The position numbers were made by a program, and so were the translations under genes. This document shows, in pieces, positions 36,956 through 44,423 of a DNA stretch of 64,000 bases. Source of the DNA: Crocinitomicaceae bacterium (GTDB lineage: Bacteria > Bacteroidota > Bacteroidia > Flavobacteriales_D > Crocinitomicaceae); assembly GCA_022447585.1 (NCBI GenBank), contig JAKVAR010000009.1, forward strand, positions 57,133 through 121,132. The letters run 5' to 3'. The notes beneath the pieces were generated by a model, which was not told the origin of the DNA, searched no databases, and saw only the letters and a list, made by a program, of their open reading frames with translations. Position 1 is the stretch's first letter. Every line of letters begins with the position of its first letter.

Positions 36956-37357
36956 ATGGATAAAAAAAACGTTCCTGTTGTTCTGTATGATGGAGATTGT
37001 GGTTTTTGCAATCGTTCTGTTGCTTTCGTCATGAAACAAGATAAAACTAAAACAATATATTTTGCCGCTTTACAGTCCAATTTCACGAAAGAACTATTCA
37101 TTCAAAATGATTGGGAAGAACCCGATTTAAGTACTTTTTATTTTATCGAGAAAGGCGAGTTGTTTCAAAAGTCGAAAGCTGCGTTGAAAGTAGCGAAGTA
37201 TTTTTCTTTTCCCTTCAATCTTATCCAAAGCTTTATCATTGTGCCTCGATTTATTAGCGACGGTGTCTACGATTTTATAGCTAAAAGACGTCAGAAATTA
37301 TCCAGTGGATTTTGTCTTATGCCAACCGAAGAGGAAAGAAAACGATTTATTCGTTAG
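36956..37357 (+). CDS. Thiol-disulfide oxidoreductase DCC family (DUF393) protein
   Basis: N-terminal VVLYDGDCGFCNRSV (DxxCxxC) signature. Confidence 0.85.
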   Translation: MDKKNVPVVLYDGDCGFCNRSVAFVMKQDKTKTIYFAALQSNFTKELFIQNDWEEPDLSTFYFIEKGELFQKSKAALKVAKYFSFPFNLIQSFIIVPRFISDGVYDFIAKRRQKLSSGFCLMPTEEERKRFIR

Positions 37358-38598
37358 TTATTGAAGGTTTTAAAGATTACTAGAAGTTCGTCAGGTGGAA
37401 CAATCTTATTCTCATGATCATTCATTCGATTTAAAACTTCATTTGTTGCCATTGGGTTAAGTCCCATCCGCATCCCGATGTTTTTAATATAATCGATTTC
37501 TTCAGTCCCAGCTTCTAAATCAACATTCATCAATAAAATCAATCGTTGAAATTGAACAATTCGATCTGCTTCTAGTTTAGGAGGTGTGAATTCAATGTTT
37601 TTTTCAAATACATACATAAAGTCATCTTTTGTTATACCTAATTGTGCAGCTATTGAAAATAAAAATTGAAATTCTATTTCTCGCACTTCATTGTCCGATT
37701 TTGCTAGTTTTACAAGGTCAGCTAATAGGCTAAGTTTCTCATCCCGTTCGGATGTTGCTTTTCCTTCTGTGCCTTTGAAAAAATCTAAGGTTAATTGACA
37801 GACTTGAGTCAAAGCCGTCGGCATTTCCGATTTTCCCCAGGGTTGATAGGAATCAAACGTGTGTTGGGTGCCAGGTATGATCTTTAGTTTAGTCTCTAAC
37901 CAACTTGCAATATGTTCACCTTCTTGTAATGGTACTGATGTGTCATTCTCTCCATGAATAACTAGGGTAGGAGTTGTTGAGTTTTTACAGTAGTTCTCAA
38001 TATTGAGTCGTTGTTCATAGTTCAAAAAGCTCTCGTATTGAGAATAGCTATGAGGCATAGTCTGTCCCGTTCTACCATTTTTACGATAGTAATATCCATG
38101 CTCTTGCCATTCTTTTAAATCCTTTCCTTTAGGAAAGCGATCCGAAATGGATGAAATTCCGGCCCAACTCACAATTTTAGAAACGAGACCATTTGAAGAT
38201 TGAAGTAAAGAAATCCCGCCACCGCGAGAGTGACCTATAACGTAAATTTCGGGCATTTCATCAAATTCATCTTGCACCAGGTTTGTTATTGCTTCAAAAT
38301 CTTGTAACTCTTTAACGTAGTTGTTTTGACCAAATGAGGCGAGGTCATCAAAATCAATTGGGTTTTCAATTGTACTTCCGTTGTGACTGGCATTATATTT
38401 AATGAAGCCAAATTGATTCTTTGTGAAAAAGCCTTGAACTAAATTCCAACAGCCCCAATCTTTATATCCCATGTATCCATGTATAAAAATGACTAGTTTA
38501 CCATTCCATTTAGAGGGGATAGAAAGGTCGTAAAGACTTTCCTTGTTGTTAGCTCCAGTAAAAAGTGCGTTCTTGATTTCTTTATTCATGTTATTCAA
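37354..38598 (-). CDS. Alpha/beta hydrolase fused to a C-terminal TerB-like domain
   Basis: Nucleophile elbow GHSRGG, with a later HGENDT and H (..GTQHTF). The last ~130 aa carry two SD/E..(V/I)..(E)E..(F/Y)(L/I)..(I/M)...(L/M)G(I/L) helical repeats typical of TerB/DjlA-N domains. Confidence 0.7.
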   Translation of the reverse strand: MNNMNKEIKNALFTGANNKESLYDLSIPSKWNGKLVIFIHGYMGYKDWGCWNLVQGFFTKNQFGFIKYNASHNGSTIENPIDFDDLASFGQNNYVKELQDFEAITNLVQDEFDEMPEIYVIGHSRGGGISLLQSSNGLVSKIVSWAGISSISDRFPKGKDLKEWQEHGYYYRKNGRTGQTMPHSYSQYESFLNYEQRLNIENYCKNSTTPTLVIHGENDTSVPLQEGEHIASWLETKLKIIPGTQHTFDSYQPWGKSEMPTALTQVCQLTLDFFKGTEGKATSERDEKLSLLADLVKLAKSDNEVREIEFQFLFSIAAQLGITKDDFMYVFEKNIEFTPPKLEADRIVQFQRLILLMNVDLEAGTEEIDYIKNIGMRMGLNPMATNEVLNRMNDHENKIVPPDELLVIFKTFNN

Positions 38599-38718: not shown

Positions 38719-39102
38719 ATGAAAGTCACTTTAATCCTTTTGTTTGCATTGCTCTTGGCTAGTTGTGGAAATGATTTTGGGAGCAAAGTCGTTGGTGGAA
38801 ACTTATCTGTCTATTACGTAGACAGTTCTGATAAGTTAAAAGCAGAGGCTTTAGCTATGTATTGGAGAGAGAATGATTTGATTTCAGGTGAACAGCAAGA
38901 CCTTCAATTGGTCAACTTTGAGGACGGCTATGAACTGAGAATAATTGCTAAAACTCCAAAAGGTGTTAAGAAAATGCCATTCAACGAGAGAAAACTGTTG
39001 TCTACTTTACAGGGGGTGTTAAGAGATAGTATTCCTTTGGATGGATTGGAGATTGTTTTATGCGATTCGAATTTTAAACCAATTTATAACATTAACGAAT
39101 GA
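38719..39102 (+). CDS. Small lipoprotein, unknown function (first gene of operon)
   Basis: Lipobox LLLASC. Its stop overlaps the next start (ATGA). Confidence 0.6.
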   Translation: MKVTLILLFALLLASCGNDFGSKVVGGNLSVYYVDSSDKLKAEALAMYWRENDLISGEQQDLQLVNFEDGYELRIIAKTPKGVKKMPFNERKLLSTLQGVLRDSIPLDGLEIVLCDSNFKPIYNINE

Positions 39103-40103
39103 AAATATCTGCATCAATTTATAGCGATAAGAAAAGGCCGTTAAATGAGGTTATTCAAGATTTAGTGGATCATCAAGTTGATTTACTTCATGTTGATTGT
39201 AATGATGATATATCGGTTTTTGATGATATTAAAACGATTAGAAGGCTTTGCGATATTCCGATTGATTTACATATAATTACAGAGTTTCCTTCGAAATACT
39301 ATTCTTTGTTGGAGGAGAATCCAGTAGAGTATGTAACGTTTCAATATGAAGATTTAAAAGAGCCTTTAAATATTCCGGATTCAGTTTCGGGAAGAAGAGG
39401 TATTGCGGTAATTACACCAACGCCAGTTACGATTTTTGAGGAGTATTCCGACTATGATTTTATTTTAATAATGGCGACTATACCAGGGCAGAGCGGAGGA
39501 AAGTTTGATACCATTAATTTTTCTAAGATTAGAGAGTTTGGCAATAAGTACCCCGGAAAATCAATCCATGTAGATGGTGGAGTGAATGCCGAAGTTTCGT
39601 TCATTATCAGAAATATGGGGGTTACAAGTGCGGTTTCTGGGTCATATTTGTTTAATGCAGCCAGTATTGGTAATGCATTGATGAATTTAACTAAACGTGA
39701 GGTTGAATCTCACTTTTCGGTAAGTGATTTTATGATTCCCATAGATGAATCGCCTACCGTATCGAAATCTAATATTAGTTTAAAAGGTGTATTAGAATCA
39801 ATTGATCATGGAAAACTTGGATTTACATTGGTTGTGGAAGAGTCTAATAAATTCGCAGGGTTAGTTTCAAATGCGGATGTCAGAAAAGGGTTGTTGAAAA
39901 ATATTGAAAATTTTAACAGTTTATCAGCAGATGAGTTAATTAATCATTTCCCAGTCACAATAAGCGATACAGCTACAGTACTTGAAATGTTGCAATTAAT
40001 TAAGACGAGTACATTTCCGATTTTATACTTGCCAGTAGTTGATGACGCTGGTTTTGCAAAAGGAATTGTTACTTTTGTCAACCTCATTAAAGGAGAATTA
40101 TGA
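39099..40103 (+). CDS. Ribulose-phosphate 3-epimerase-like barrel fused to a KpsF/KdsD-type CBS pair
   Basis: aa 1-~200 carry ISASIYSD, LHVDCNDD, DLHIIT, IMATIPGQSGGKF and HVDGGVN. These align by eye to the RPE motifs (SILSAD, HxDxMDG, DxHLM, PGFGGQ.F, DGG). aa ~205-334 contain two CBS motifs (..GLVSNADVRKGLL.., ..GIVTFVNLIKG). Confidence 0.7.
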   Translation: MKISASIYSDKKRPLNEVIQDLVDHQVDLLHVDCNDDISVFDDIKTIRRLCDIPIDLHIITEFPSKYYSLLEENPVEYVTFQYEDLKEPLNIPDSVSGRRGIAVITPTPVTIFEEYSDYDFILIMATIPGQSGGKFDTINFSKIREFGNKYPGKSIHVDGGVNAEVSFIIRNMGVTSAVSGSYLFNAASIGNALMNLTKREVESHFSVSDFMIPIDESPTVSKSNISLKGVLESIDHGKLGFTLVVEESNKFAGLVSNADVRKGLLKNIENFNSLSADELINHFPVTISDTATVLEMLQLIKTSTFPILYLPVVDDAGFAKGIVTFVNLIKGEL

Positions 40104-41098
40104 TACTACATCTTAAACCAAATATCACTGATTCAAAAGCTGTCGCAATTGCCGAAGAAGTAAATGCATTTCATTTTGTTTCAAATGGAACGAATGTGCT
40201 TATTACAGGATCAGGAATGAAAGAAGTTCCAAGTTCAATTGAAGATTCAGTTGATCAATTCTGGGTGTTTGATAACGACATACAGTTAGCTTCAAAGAAA
40301 TATCAATCTGAAAAGAGGGAAGTTAAAATTGGAAACACGGTAATTGGAGGTAAAACAAATAGAACGATTCTGATTGGTGGACCCTGCTCTGTGGAATCAG
40401 AAAGTCAAATTCGTGAGTCTGCTGAGCTGTTAGTGGAAATGGGGCTAACTACCCTGCGAGGTGGTTGCTACAAACCAAGAACGAGTCCATATTCTTTTCA
40501 AGGAATGGGCTATGAGGGATTGATGCTGTTGTCTCAAATGCGAGAAGAGTTTGGTTTAAATATTATTACCGAAGTTAGAGATGCTACGCATGTTCAGGAT
40601 GTGATTGAACATTCAGATGTTATCCAAGTAGGAGCAAAAGCAATGTATGATCAAGGTATTTTACGTGCCTGTGCCAAAACCCAAAAGCCGGTCTTAATCA
40701 AGCGCGGGTTTGGAACAACATTAAAAGAATTTGTTCAAGCTGCTGAGTTCGTTCTTTCGGGCGGTAATCCAAATGTGATTCTTTGTGAAAGAGGATTAAG
40801 AACATTTGAAACAAATACAAGATTTACATTAGATCTATGCGGTGTTGCTTGGTTGCAAGAGCATACCAATCTTCCAATTATATTAGATCCGAGTCATGCC
40901 ATGGGATATGCTTATGGTGTTCCTGTTTTGTCAAAGGCTTGCGTGGCAATGGGGATTGATGGTTTATTAGTTGAAGCTCACCGAGATCCTTCAGTTGCTA
41001 AATCGGATGCTTCTCAGCAATTAACACATGATGGATTTAGAGAATTACTTACTAGCTTGAAGCCTGTTGCTGAAAGCGTTGGATATTCTATGATATAG
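40100..41098 (+). CDS. aroF: 3-deoxy-7-phosphoheptulonate (DAHP) synthase, type I-beta, with N-terminal ferredoxin-like regulatory domain
   Basis: GGPCSVES, GGCYKPRTSPYSFQG, ILCERGLRTFE and ILDPSHA are present. The N-terminal ~90 aa (MILHLKPNITD...) resemble the Thermotoga-type FL domain. Confidence 0.88.
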   Translation: MILHLKPNITDSKAVAIAEEVNAFHFVSNGTNVLITGSGMKEVPSSIEDSVDQFWVFDNDIQLASKKYQSEKREVKIGNTVIGGKTNRTILIGGPCSVESESQIRESAELLVEMGLTTLRGGCYKPRTSPYSFQGMGYEGLMLLSQMREEFGLNIITEVRDATHVQDVIEHSDVIQVGAKAMYDQGILRACAKTQKPVLIKRGFGTTLKEFVQAAEFVLSGGNPNVILCERGLRTFETNTRFTLDLCGVAWLQEHTNLPIILDPSHAMGYAYGVPVLSKACVAMGIDGLLVEAHRDPSVAKSDASQQLTHDGFRELLTSLKPVAESVGYSMI

Positions 41099-41775
41099 TG
41101 AATTTAGAAGAAAACATAAGGGGGCTTTGCGATAAAAACGGGATTGATTTTATCGATTTCTTAGCTGATATGGATGTCGAAACAGTATTTGAACTTTCTG
41201 TATCTGACTTAGAAGTTATCTGCGAAGAATACGATTTGGATTTGAATGCATTGTTATTCAAGTTTCCGTTCAAATCAAACCATCTAAAATCAAAATTAGG
41301 TAAGATTAAGCTTTTGGTTATTGATGTGGACGGAGTTATGACAGATGGTGGAATGTATTTTACGGAATCTGGAGACCAATTTAAAAAGTTTAATACAAAA
41401 GATGGAATGGCGATCATTCATCTTACTAAAAGTGGTTTTCAGGTAGCCATTATTTCGTCAGGATTTAAGGGAGAGGCAGTTACTAAACGCGCTGAAATGT
41501 TGGGAATTCAGCATTGTTCTGTAAGTCGAGCTCCTAAAATGGAAACGTTAAACGTGATTTGTAAAGAACTCAATATTGCATTAGAAAACGTAGCCATGAT
41601 TGGCGATGATATTAATGATTTAGAAGTGATGCGAAATGTTGGATTCTCAGCTTGTCCAAAGGATGCTGTGAATGAGATTAAATCGCAAGTTGATGTAATT
41701 TTAGAAAATAAGGGAGGGCAAGGGTGTGTGCGAGAATTAATCGACATGTACATTCTTAAAGAACCATTGAAATAA
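41098..41775 (+). CDS. KdsC-family HAD-IIIA phosphatase (3-deoxy-ulosonate-phosphate phosphatase-like) with ~70-aa N-terminal extension
   Basis: The HAD core LLVIDVDGVMTDGGMYF...FNTKDG...IGDDINDLEVM aligns by eye with E. coli KdsC. The GTG start overlaps the upstream TAG. The extension reads NIRGLCDKNGIDFIDFLADMDVETVFELSVSDLEVICEEYDLDLNALLF. Confidence 0.8.
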   Translation: MNLEENIRGLCDKNGIDFIDFLADMDVETVFELSVSDLEVICEEYDLDLNALLFKFPFKSNHLKSKLGKIKLLVIDVDGVMTDGGMYFTESGDQFKKFNTKDGMAIIHLTKSGFQVAIISSGFKGEAVTKRAEMLGIQHCSVSRAPKMETLNVICKELNIALENVAMIGDDINDLEVMRNVGFSACPKDAVNEIKSQVDVILENKGGQGCVRELIDMYILKEPLK

Positions 41776-41778
41776 AGT

Positions 41779-42999
41779 ATGGAGAAGATTAAAATAGGAG
41801 TTATCAGAGAAGGAAAGGTGCCACCAGACAAACGCGTTCCATTGACACCTAAGCAGTGTAAACTTCTTGAAACTGTTTATCCGAATGTGGAAGTGATTGT
41901 TCAGCCAAGTCCAATTAGAGCATATAAGGATGAAGCTTATTTATCAGAAGGTATTTCCATGAATGAGGATTTATCCTCTTGTGAAATTATACTGGGAGTT
42001 AAAGAGGTTAATATATCTGACCTTATTCCAAATAAGAAATTTCTTTTCTTCTCGCATACCTTGAAGAAGCAACCCTATAATAGAGATTTGCTGAAAGCAA
42101 TCATAGATAAGAAAATACAACTTATAGATTACGAAGCATTGAAAGATAAAACGAACAAACGAGTTATTGGTTTTGGTCGTTATGCTGGAATTGTTGGTTG
42201 CTATAATGGTTTTTTGACTTATGGTTTAAAGCATGATCTTTACGATTTAAAAGCTGCAAATAAATGCGCTGACCGAAAAGAAGTTGAACAAGAGTTGAAA
42301 AAAGTTGAACTCCCTTCAAATACTAAGATTGTACTGACTGGTTTTGGACGGGTAGGACATGGTGCAAGAGAGATCTTAGATTTACTGCCAATTAAAGAAG
42401 TTACTCCTGAAGAATACTTGACCCAAGAGTTTAATGAGCCTATTTATACTCATCTAGAGGTTGAAGACTATTATTCTAAACGTGATGGTTCTGAATTTGA
42501 TAAGAATGATTTTTATGACAACCCGGAATCTTATAAGTCAGATTTTAAAAAGTACATTTCTCAATCGGATATGTACATTCCTTGTCATTACTGGAGTGAT
42601 AAAGCCGATTATATTATTACGAGAGATGATTTAAAAAGTGAAGACGTTAGGTTGTCTGTTGTAGCTGATATTTCTTGTGATATTGATTGTGCTGTGGCTT
42701 GCACAATTCGCCCGAGTAAGATTGCTGATCCAATTTATGGATATGACCCAAAAACTGAATCTGAAGCGGACTTTAAAGCTGAAGGTGTAATTGCTGTTAT
42801 GGCAGTGGATAATTTACCTTGTGAATTACCTTTGGATGCTTCTGAAGATTTTGGTGGTGAATTATTGAAAGAAATCTTTCCATCGTTAATAATTGAAGAC
42901 AAAGATCTAATTATTGCTAAAGGAAGTGAAACGACGTTGGATGGCGAATTGTCTGAATATTTCCAGTACTTGGATAACTATTTAAAAGGACTTGAATAA
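41779..42999 (+). CDS. Alanine dehydrogenase/PNT-fold NAD(P) oxidoreductase, saccharopine-dehydrogenase (lysine-forming)-like
   Basis: The N-terminal IGVIREGKVPPDKRVPLTP...ILGVKEV and central TGFGRVGHGA Rossmann motif fit this fold at 406 aa. Confidence 0.7.
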   Translation: MEKIKIGVIREGKVPPDKRVPLTPKQCKLLETVYPNVEVIVQPSPIRAYKDEAYLSEGISMNEDLSSCEIILGVKEVNISDLIPNKKFLFFSHTLKKQPYNRDLLKAIIDKKIQLIDYEALKDKTNKRVIGFGRYAGIVGCYNGFLTYGLKHDLYDLKAANKCADRKEVEQELKKVELPSNTKIVLTGFGRVGHGAREILDLLPIKEVTPEEYLTQEFNEPIYTHLEVEDYYSKRDGSEFDKNDFYDNPESYKSDFKKYISQSDMYIPCHYWSDKADYIITRDDLKSEDVRLSVVADISCDIDCAVACTIRPSKIADPIYGYDPKTESEADFKAEGVIAVMAVDNLPCELPLDASEDFGGELLKEIFPSLIIEDKDLIIAKGSETTLDGELSEYFQYLDNYLKGLE

Positions 43000-44423
43000 T
43001 GGAAAAAGGTAACAAGAAGATTATCAGAGGATGGGTCTCATACGATTGGGCCAATTCAGTTTATAACTTGGTAATCTCTTCTGCTATTTTTCCCATTTTC
43101 TTCGAGAAGTCAACAACTTTTGCTTATAAAGTAAGAACTAATCCACAGTTGAATCCAGAGATAGAGGCTGATCTCGATAAGCTTAAGGCTATAAGTGTCA
43201 GAACTGAAGATGTAACCTCATTTTTCTTTGGAGTTGAAATAACATCTTCAGTACTTTATACTTATGTATTAGCTGCTTCATTCTTGCTAGTTTCGTTTCT
43301 TTCACCTTTACTTTCTGGTATTGCCGATTATTCAGGGAAGAAAAAGACTTTTATGAAGTTTTTTTGCTATTTGGGAGCGCTTTCTTGTGTGGGTCTATTT
43401 TTATTTAATCCAAGTAATATGGGATTAAGCATGGTTCCTTTCTTTCTTGCAAGCATCGGCTTTTGGAGTAGTTTGGTTTTCTATAATTCTTTTTTGCCGG
43501 AAATTGCTGAACCTGAAGATCACGATAGAATTTCTGCAAAGGGATTTTCTATGGGATACATTGGAAGTATGGTACTATTGATTATTTGTCTCATATGGAA
43601 CATGGTACTTAAATTTCCAATAGAATATTGTTTCGTTTTTGTTGGTGTATGGTGGGTTTCATTTAGTCAAATTGCCTACAAGGTTCTTCCAAATAATGTA
43701 TATAATAGAAAAGCTGAAAAGGGAATAATTTGGAAAGGGTTTGAAGAATTGAAACTTGTGTTTTCAGAGTTTAAGAAGACGAAAAGGTTGAAAAGGTTTG
43801 TAACTTCATTTTTCTTTTTCAATACCGGTGTTCAAACCGTTATGCTAATGGCTACACTATATGCTTCAAGAGAAATCTTTAAGATTCCTGATGCATTGAG
43901 GGCTACCTTGACTCCCGAAGAAATTACAGCTAAAGAAGGTGAAGGGACAGCAGGTCTTATTATCGCGATTCTTTTGATTCAAATATTAGGTGCCGTGGGT
44001 GCATTTTTCATCTCTAAACTTTCTGGAAAGATTGGTAATCTAAAAACATTAACTATTGTGGTCGCATTTTGGATTCCGCTATGTGTATTTGCCTACTTTA
44101 TTCCTCAAGGAGCACATGCACAGTTTTACATTTTAGCATGTGGAGTTGGATTAGTTATGGGAGGTGTTCAGTCTTTAGCTCGTTCTACCTATGCGAAGTT
44201 TTTACCAGAAACAAAAGATCACGCTAGTTACTTCTCCTTTTATGATGTTACAGAGAAAATAGGAATTGTAATGGGCACATTTTTCTTTGGATTTATGGAG
44301 TACATTATGGATGATATTCGTGCCTCAATTCTTTCGGTTATATTCTTCTTTGTAATGGGTTTGATAATGATATTCAGAGTTCCAAAGCGGGAATTAGAAC
44401 TCGATGGTTTCGCTACTGAATAA
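42999..44423 (+). CDS. MFS transporter, UMF1/Atg22-like family
   Basis: N-terminal WVSYDWANSVYNLVISSAIFPIFF signature and about 12 TM segments. TAATG overlap with the upstream gene. Confidence 0.85.
   Translation: MEKGNKKIIRGWVSYDWANSVYNLVISSAIFPIFFEKSTTFAYKVRTNPQLNPEIEADLDKLKAISVRTEDVTSFFFGVEITSSVLYTYVLAASFLLVSFLSPLLSGIADYSGKKKTFMKFFCYLGALSCVGLFLFNPSNMGLSMVPFFLASIGFWSSLVFYNSFLPEIAEPEDHDRISAKGFSMGYIGSMVLLIICLIWNMVLKFPIEYCFVFVGVWWVSFSQIAYKVLPNNVYNRKAEKGIIWKGFEELKLVFSEFKKTKRLKRFVTSFFFFNTGVQTVMLMATLYASREIFKIPDALRATLTPEEITAKEGEGTAGLIIAILLIQILGAVGAFFISKLSGKIGNLKTLTIVVAFWIPLCVFAYFIPQGAHAQFYILACGVGLVMGGVQSLARSTYAKFLPETKDHASYFSFYDVTEKIGIVMGTFFFGFMEYIMDDIRASILSVIFFFVMGLIMIFRVPKRELELDGFATE

Follow-up and report, generated by a model that had tools for sequence, protein, structure and literature searches.

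The window analysed here, a 64,000-nucleotide stretch of DNA from a Crocinitomicaceae bacterium (contig JAKVAR010000009.1), encodes at 39099..40103 on the + strand a 334-aa protein in which a barrel related to ribulose-phosphate 3-epimerase (RPE) is fused to a pair of CBS domains, referred to below as RPE-CBS. RPE-CBS occupies the functional slot of KdsD, the arabinose-5-phosphate isomerase of the 3-deoxy-D-manno-octulosonate (Kdo) pathway, because it is mutually exclusive with the KpsF-type isomerases and with a second CBS fusion (FSA-CBS), its gene belongs to a conserved triad, KdsD and KdsA were not found in any carrier searched, and the downstream enzyme KdsB is inherited vertically. It very probably takes the place of KdsD in providing the aldose phosphate of a Kdo or Kdo-like pathway; that this aldose phosphate is D-arabinose 5-phosphate (arabinose-5-P), and the pathway a non-canonical route to Kdo itself, is the favoured reading and is held with less assurance.

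Kdo synthesis is regarded as near-universal, essential and invariant in Gram-negative envelope biogenesis, and KdsD and KdsA have attracted study as targets for antibiotics. In our sample, neither of the two was seen in the Crocinitomicaceae-like Flavobacteriales, an abundant aquatic family, or in several other lineages; these carry instead a pair consisting of an epimerase barrel and a shikimate-pathway-type aldolase.

Domain architecture and active site of RPE-CBS

The gene and its two parts are as follows.

39099..40103, + strand: RPE-CBS gene, 334 aa (open reading frame (ORF) and its translation; Pfam PF00834 and PF00571; AlphaFold2 model)
39099..39698, + strand: divergent ribulose-phosphate-binding (beta/alpha)8 barrel, aa 1-200 (HMM and BLAST alignments, invariant columns, Foldseek)
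39711..40100, + strand: CBS pair of KdsD/KpsF type, aa ~205-334, presumed regulatory (kpsF model, 4o9k, CBS-only profile)

In Pfam, Ribul_P_3_epim (PF00834) covers aa 2-185 with the complete model (positions 1-198 of 198) at 72.5 bits (cut-off 21.1, E 4e-20), and two CBS stretches (PF00571) in the C-terminal part score 37 bits against a cut-off of 24. A SIS domain, i.e., the catalytic domain of KdsD, was found in the protein neither by Pfam nor by NCBIfam. The full-length Pfam match assigns the N-terminal domain to the RPE family; however, the protein stays below the cut-offs of the RPE equivalog TIGR01163 (71.1 vs. 212.6 bits) and of PRK05581 (81.5 vs. 165 bits) in NCBIfam. An AlphaFold2 model calculated from a 27-sequence alignment (pLDDT 89.2, pTM 0.86) shows beta-alpha-beta-beta-alpha repeats in the CBS part, where the pLDDT is mostly >85. 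Foldseek matched the barrel of this model to solved RPEs (TM by target 0.75-0.80) and the C-terminal part to CBS pairs (TM 0.72-0.78), the best of which, 4o9k, comes from an arabinose-5-phosphate isomerase. When the family profile was run against PDB sequences, RPEs ranked first, followed by 4o9k (E 2e-11) before all other CBS proteins (next 2e-8), and D-allulose-6-phosphate 3-epimerase (AlsE, 3ct7) was detectable as a relative (E 2e-12). The original prediction of an RPE-like barrel followed by a CBS pair is thus borne out by the translated ORF, which contains all the motifs quoted for it, by Pfam and by the AlphaFold2/Foldseek comparison.

RPE-CBS is a real gene and no chance ORF, because proteins of the same length and architecture fill more than 100 clusters at 70-94% identity, a profile search of 1.8 billion representatives returned ~167 clusters at 50% identity with E<=1e-30 (most of the full-length ones 330-345 aa long), and relatives occur in at least 537 species genomes. 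The original prediction had considered that the architecture might turn out to be common and functionally characterised; it is common, but full-text literature searches found no characterisation of an RPE-CBS protein, nor of a Kdo pathway without KdsD and KdsA, nor any description of such a cassette in Campylobacter capsule loci. The names carried by these proteins in databases are "CBS domain-containing protein" or "ribulose-phosphate 3-epimerase".

The active site of the C. reinhardtii RPE comprises the tetrad His72/Asp74/His105/Asp216, methionines 76, 107 and 178 and loops A-C (10.1101/2022.09.29.510120), and the three conserved methionines cushion the 2,3-enediolate (10.1101/2022.09.29.510120). 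Alignment of RPE-CBS to solved RPEs and to the RPE of its own genome places the metal and acid-base tetrad at H31, D33, H58 and D159, which are invariant in 27 homologues, in agreement with the retained His/Asp metal ligands that had been predicted. The phosphate loops PGQSGG, DGG and SGS are kept as well. The substrate-contacting segments, on the other hand, have diverged, also as predicted: loop B (MDGxFVPNxxxG in RPE, after beta-2) is replaced and 6 residues shorter, and of the three methionines only M125 is retained, Met76 and Met107 (C. reinhardtii numbering) being Asn35 and Ile60, respectively. Cys34 is invariant in the RPE-CBS family. The barrel shares 27% identity with the genome's own RPE, and the tree branch leading from RPE-CBS to canonical RPE measures ~10 substitutions per site. 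Since the tetrad and the phosphate loops are kept while the methionines and loop B are changed, the barrel appears to descend from RPE, with a remodelled substrate pocket, and to enolise sugar phosphates in a metal-dependent way.

For the C-terminal third, the best CBS-side NCBIfam matches are KpsF/GutQ (kpsF, E 2e-7) and KdsD; the kpsF model (TIGR00393) aligns to RPE-CBS only over positions 157-267 (30.9 bits vs. 203.7). A CBS-only profile gives 35-39 bits for the KdsD proteins of relatives, compared with 28.6 bits for the highest-scoring other CBS protein encoded in the own genome. NCBIfam, the family profile, Foldseek and the CBS-only profile therefore agree on the KdsD/KpsF-like character of the pair, as originally proposed. 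The pair is probably a feedback sensor; in the 4o9k entry the protein is complexed with CMP-Kdo.

Gene triad, phyletic pattern and history

Directly downstream of RPE-CBS lie two genes that form a triad with it.

40100..41098, + strand: type I-beta aldolase resembling 3-deoxy-D-arabino-heptulosonate-7-phosphate (DAHP) synthase (DAHPS), with an N-terminal ferredoxin-like domain; obligate partner (PRK08673 355 bits, KDO8PS model 126 bits)
41098..41775, + strand: KdsC-family HAD phosphatase, third triad gene (TIGR01670 148.7 bits, cut-off 107)

The stop codon of RPE-CBS and the start codon of the aldolase overlap (ATGA). RPE-CBS, aldolase and phosphatase are contiguous and in the same order in all 12 Flavobacteriales loci that were fetched, which come from four taxonomic families, and the triad matches KdsD-KdsA-KdsC gene for gene. 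Further afield, the aldolase adjoins RPE-CBS in both loci of family f25 and in 5/5 distant contexts recovered, and the KdsC-family phosphatase follows the aldolase in f25 too, there without an N-terminal extension. This extension of ~65 aa (41098-41300 in the window) is kept in the Flavobacteriales triads; the triad phosphatase of another order lacks it and is 159 aa long in genomes G511 and G495.

The phyletic pattern was examined in 301 evenly sampled genomes from the window's order. Full-length RPE-CBS is encoded by 85 of them, namely 73 of the 74 sampled members of the window's family, the window's own genome and 11 genomes from three other families. A KpsF-type isomerase, with SIS and CBS or with a single SIS domain, occurs in 187 genomes, none of which has RPE-CBS; ~90 of these 187 fall under the model's full-length cut-off, many of them with the ~200-aa single-SIS form that has no CBS pair. 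Canonical KdsA was found in 192/301 genomes and in none of the RPE-CBS genomes, which give only a DAHPS-like match of ~1e-33. In the one window-family genome without RPE-CBS (G291), the aldolase starts at base 68 of its contig.

Among the genomes with KdsA but neither KpsF nor RPE-CBS, a further fusion came to light, TAL_FSA-CBS (FSA-CBS for short), in which a short transaldolase/FSA barrel is fused to a KdsD-type CBS pair in a protein of ~336 aa, encoded directly beside canonical kdsA. It occurs in 15/301 genomes, none of which has KpsF or RPE-CBS, and appears to be a third replacement of KdsD. One example lies at L187:868-1875 (G042:C2:115967-116974), and others were seen in L186, L188 and L191-L194. 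Together, the three types cover 288 of the 301 genomes; with the contig-break genome counted as RPE-CBS, no genome has two types. The remaining genomes are mostly metagenome-assembled genomes (MAGs) that are <90% complete. A sample of 251 genomes at phylum level contains two genomes of another order, G495 and G511, that carry the triad and have a genuine DAHPS beside trpA; KpsF and KdsA were not found in either. Genome G182 has a KpsF N-terminal fragment at a contig end (C427:2758-3033) and a triad-type aldolase at the start of another contig (C177:187-1179; L163, L173); this MAG is split into 430 contigs and 3% contaminated, and the apparent exception may reflect either co-occurrence or a mixed bin. 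The original prediction had spoken of a domain swap relative to KdsD, with the specificity left undefined; this is supported, and the operon and phyletic evidence points to a takeover of KdsD's job as well as of its architecture.

The window's own genome is 99.98% complete. It contains KdsB above the equivalog cut-off (224 vs. 155 bits) and WaaA, and a profile search found no KpsF/KdsD over the cut-off. Its only SIS proteins are GlmS, GmhA and MurQ; GmhA and MurQ were considered as a hidden isomerase and rejected, both passing their own equivalog cut-offs. No canonical Kdo-8-P synthase (KDO8PS/KdsA) was found in it either. The sole other PF00793 gene (on C145), considered as a candidate KdsA, was rejected because it is a DAHPS-chorismate mutase fusion adjoining aroA, and this fusion serves the aromatic pathway. 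The enzymes for activation and transfer of Kdo are therefore present in this genome, and the triad is the only candidate found for the Kdo-making steps. The genome also has a KDN-type nonulosonate cluster (G000:C46:105088-107325; L018, L020) with a cytidylyltransferase, a NeuB-like synthase and a KDN-9-P phosphatase (243 bits, over the cut-off).

KdsB was found in 27/27 genomes that were examined for it. In the KdsB tree, which agrees with taxonomy, the RPE-type label requires at least 4 changes, and the RPE-type branches are not elongated. In addition, the RPE-CBS copy of genus g41 is nested within the window's family with 100/99 support. Based on the taxonomic KdsB tree, the label changes and the nested g41 copy, the module has been transferred horizontally and has displaced the adjacent kdsD-kdsA block, with the downstream Kdo enzymes unchanged. 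Within this genus, G031 has kdsB-kpsF-kdsA, and G061 has a lone kdsB (63% identical) and the triad elsewhere. The kpsF of the G031 operon (L069; G031:C10:449409-453140) is of the single-SIS form; in G061 (L071; G061:C1), the place after kdsB is taken by an unrelated ORF (196 aa) that belongs to no known family.

In the 5 distant RPE-CBS contexts recovered, the neighbouring gene is always the DAHPS-type aldolase, which in 3 of the 5 has no N-terminal domain. A gene for an RraA-like protein (PF03737), which does not occur in the Bacteroidota triads, is present in 4 of the 5 (L177:8657-9313, L178:1875-2519, L180:2824-3447 and L183:5340-5975). Three of these four also have a cytidylyltransferase, which is a true KdsB in L180 and divergent in L177 and L183, and two have a phosphatase, KdsC in L178 and HAD-IA in L183; of the four, L183 is the one located in a polysaccharide cluster. 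The fifth context (L181/L182) consists of the RPE-CBS/aldolase pair only. The constant core is thus RPE-CBS with its signature aldolase, and this pair adjoins KdsB and KdsC in distant lineages. In NCBIfam, an RraA-like domain also occurs in fusion with an archaeal hexulose-6-P synthase.

Candidate product and competing explanations

For the substrate and product of the barrel, the kind of proton transfer involved and the ligand of the CBS pair, we infer the following. RPE-CBS would be the first enzyme of a non-canonical Kdo route, standing in for KdsD, and its barrel would turn an intermediate of the pentose phosphate pathway into D-arabinose 5-phosphate, either from ribulose-5-P via a 1,2-proton shift or from ribose-5-P, epimerised at C2 by the two retained aspartates. 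The translationally coupled DAHPS-like aldolase would condense arabinose-5-P with phosphoenolpyruvate (PEP) to Kdo-8-P, the KdsC-type phosphatase of the triad would remove the phosphate, and ordinary KdsB and WaaA would activate and transfer Kdo. The CBS pair, derived from KdsD, would most likely sense a nucleotide-type ligand, e.g., the end product CMP-Kdo, and throttle the barrel. Arabinose-5-P is the most economical product, because only Kdo-8-P would suit the vertically inherited KdsB, WaaA and the later lipopolysaccharide (LPS) enzymes unaltered at every swap.

The aldolase bears on this choice. All members of its subfamily, including those adjoining very distant RPE-CBS proteins, have the signature GAKxMY[DN], DLCG and SHAMGY, in place of the GARNxQN, DI(N/S)A and SH(P/G)xG(R/I)R found at the same sites in genuine I-beta DAHPS (archaeal and Thermotoga enzymes and Bacteroidota enzymes adjoining trpA), and the metal ligands and the KPRTS motif are kept. 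By this clear signature, the aldolase is no ordinary DAHP synthase. Y183/D184 may lie at the site of the inter-subunit Arg that serves the phosphate of arabinose-5-P in KDO8PS. A complex prediction for RPE-CBS and the aldolase scored 0.02, and no inference was drawn from it.

Several observations weigh against arabinose-5-P and Kdo as the products, and most of them favour the main rival, namely that another aldose phosphate is made and leads to a Kdo analogue. In the simplest case, erythrose-4-P would be epimerised at C2 to D-threose-4-P, which the aldolase would convert to, e.g., the seven-carbon 3-deoxy-D-lyxo-heptulosonate, to be activated and then placed in the LPS core or another glycan. 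The aldolase is much closer to DAHPS (318 bits, best solved chain) than to KDO8PS (~105 bits), its KPRTS motif is of the tetrose-phosphate type, and it lacks the long KDO8PS loop that follows the metal-binding His. The metal of RPE binds O2 and O3 of a 5-phospho-ketopentose, so that an aldopentose-5-P would be one carbon out of register in such a site, whereas erythrose-4-P would be in register with ribulose-5-P. Across a deep divergence, RPE-CBS and the aldolase subfamily stay strictly coupled, with no mixing with KdsA or KdsD; in particular, RPE-CBS was never found paired with canonical KdsA, whereas SIS-CBS and FSA-CBS are, which would also suit an intermediate that KdsA cannot use. The genome has a stand-alone KdsC, and the triad nevertheless carries a phosphatase of its own. 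Some distant cassettes lie in polysaccharide clusters with divergent cytidylyltransferases, and in L183 such a cluster also has a non-KdsC phosphatase, which hints at a non-Kdo sugar there. As to the sensor, the link between the CBS pair and KdsD is moderate: 4o9k comes first only with the family profile and in the fold search, and a single-sequence phmmer query with the CBS part against PDB puts it fifth.

However, the carriers keep an orthologous, vertically inherited KdsB at equivalog level as well as WaaA, with no accelerated change. The module replaced kdsD-kdsA at least 4-5 times, once by transfer within a genus, and at each replacement all downstream LPS enzymes would need to accept the analogue at once. 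The strict pairing, moreover, would also arise if neighbouring genes coupled in translation were gained and lost as blocks. A Kdo analogue derived from another aldose phosphate is thus possible but rather unlikely. Its far-reaching form, in which whole Bacteroidota families, including all sampled members of the window's family, would put an analogue derived from a non-pentose aldose phosphate rather than Kdo on lipid A and the barrel would be an aldose-phosphate 2-epimerase, is doubtful.

The assignment given by Pfam and by several database names, together with the retained metal tetrad and phosphate loops, would also fit an additional ribulose-5-P 3-epimerase under CBS control that adjusts flux through the pentose phosphate pathway, with a neighbourhood that is coincidental or that reflects the supply of erythrose-4-P for DAHPS. 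This is very improbable. The shortfall on the equivalog model, the loss of two of the three methionines and the shortened loop B all argue against it, and a canonical RPE is present elsewhere in the own genome (262 bits) and in related carriers. The aromatic pathway has its own DAHPS, and the exclusivity with KdsD and FSA-CBS and the missing KdsA would be left unexplained.

The genes that flank the triad in the window are the following.

41779-42999, + strand: AlaDH/PNT-like gene (Pfam; without an NCBIfam family)
42999-44423, + strand: Atg22-like MFS gene (Pfam)
38719..39102, + strand: small upstream ORF, 127 aa, with a lipoprotein-like N-terminus (ORF list)
37354-38598, - strand: alpha/beta-hydrolase whose C-terminal part is TerB-like; conserved on the upstream side of the triad

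The two downstream genes are co-directional with the triad and packed onto it with gaps of 0-3 nt. This tight packing through 44423, the AlaDH/PNT-like and Atg22-like MFS assignments and the joint presence of all five genes in the closer relatives L050 and L051 would suit a gene string (RPE-CBS, aldolase, phosphatase, AlaDH/saccharopine-dehydrogenase-like enzyme and MFS exporter) that makes an exported small molecule, e.g., an opine-like conjugate of a 2-keto sugar acid. There is little chance of this, since the last two genes stand outside the conserved core: they lie downstream of the triad only in closer relatives (L049-L051), most lineages have the triad without them (deep branches within the family, f25 and the distant cassettes among these), and the explanation leaves the missing KdsD and KdsA unaccounted for. 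Upstream, the stop of the 127-aa ORF overlaps the start of RPE-CBS; this ORF is lineage-specific, with no Pfam or NCBIfam family and no tblastn match in 12 related loci. Several genera of the family share the alpha/beta-hydrolase/TerB-like gene upstream of the triad, at 43-48% identity in L045-L048 and L051.

If the replacement of KdsD by RPE-CBS is correct, these genomes contain either a novel class of arabinose-5-P-forming enzymes or a novel sugar in the inner core, and the CBS pair of KdsD would be a pathway-specific sensor that is portable, having been combined with catalytic domains of three unrelated folds (SIS, RPE-like and FSA-like). A systematic mis-annotation as "ribulose-phosphate 3-epimerase", "CBS domain protein" or "DAHP synthase" would then be corrected in hundreds of genomes, where it skews reconstructions of metabolism for pentose phosphates, aromatic amino acids and LPS.

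Comparison with known systems

The closest functional counterpart is KdsD/KpsF/GutQ (TIGR00393). Like RPE-CBS, these proteins are ~330 aa long with a C-terminal CBS pair of the same subtype, are encoded before a PEP-dependent ulosonate-phosphate synthase and KdsC, and are present exactly where the other type is missing. In contrast, their catalytic domain is SIS, whereas RPE-CBS has an RPE-family (beta/alpha)8 barrel with a metal site, its partner synthase is DAHPS-like rather than KdsA, and its chemistry is predicted only. The single-SIS arabinose-5-P isomerases (~200 aa), which are common in the order, fill the same pathway slot with a SIS fold and no CBS pair.

RPE itself (EC 5.1.3.1; PF00834, TIGR01163; 7b1w, 3qc3, 2fli) shares with RPE-CBS the fold, the His-x-Asp/His/Asp tetrad, the glycine-rich phosphate loops and M125. 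It differs from RPE-CBS, a paralogue that exists beside a normal RPE, in that the latter has the short loop B, Asn35 and Ile60, the invariant Cys34 and the fused CBS pair. AlsE offers a precedent for an RPE barrel re-tuned to other sugar phosphates, but it epimerises C3 of a 2-ketose phosphate and has neither a CBS pair nor a link to ulosonates.

The uncharacterised TAL_FSA-CBS of Bacteroidota is the nearest parallel in design, as the KdsD-type CBS pair is kept, the catalytic domain is exchanged and the gene lies in a Kdo neighbourhood. It uses a short transaldolase/FSA barrel instead, and it pairs with canonical KdsA, so that its product should be arabinose-5-P.

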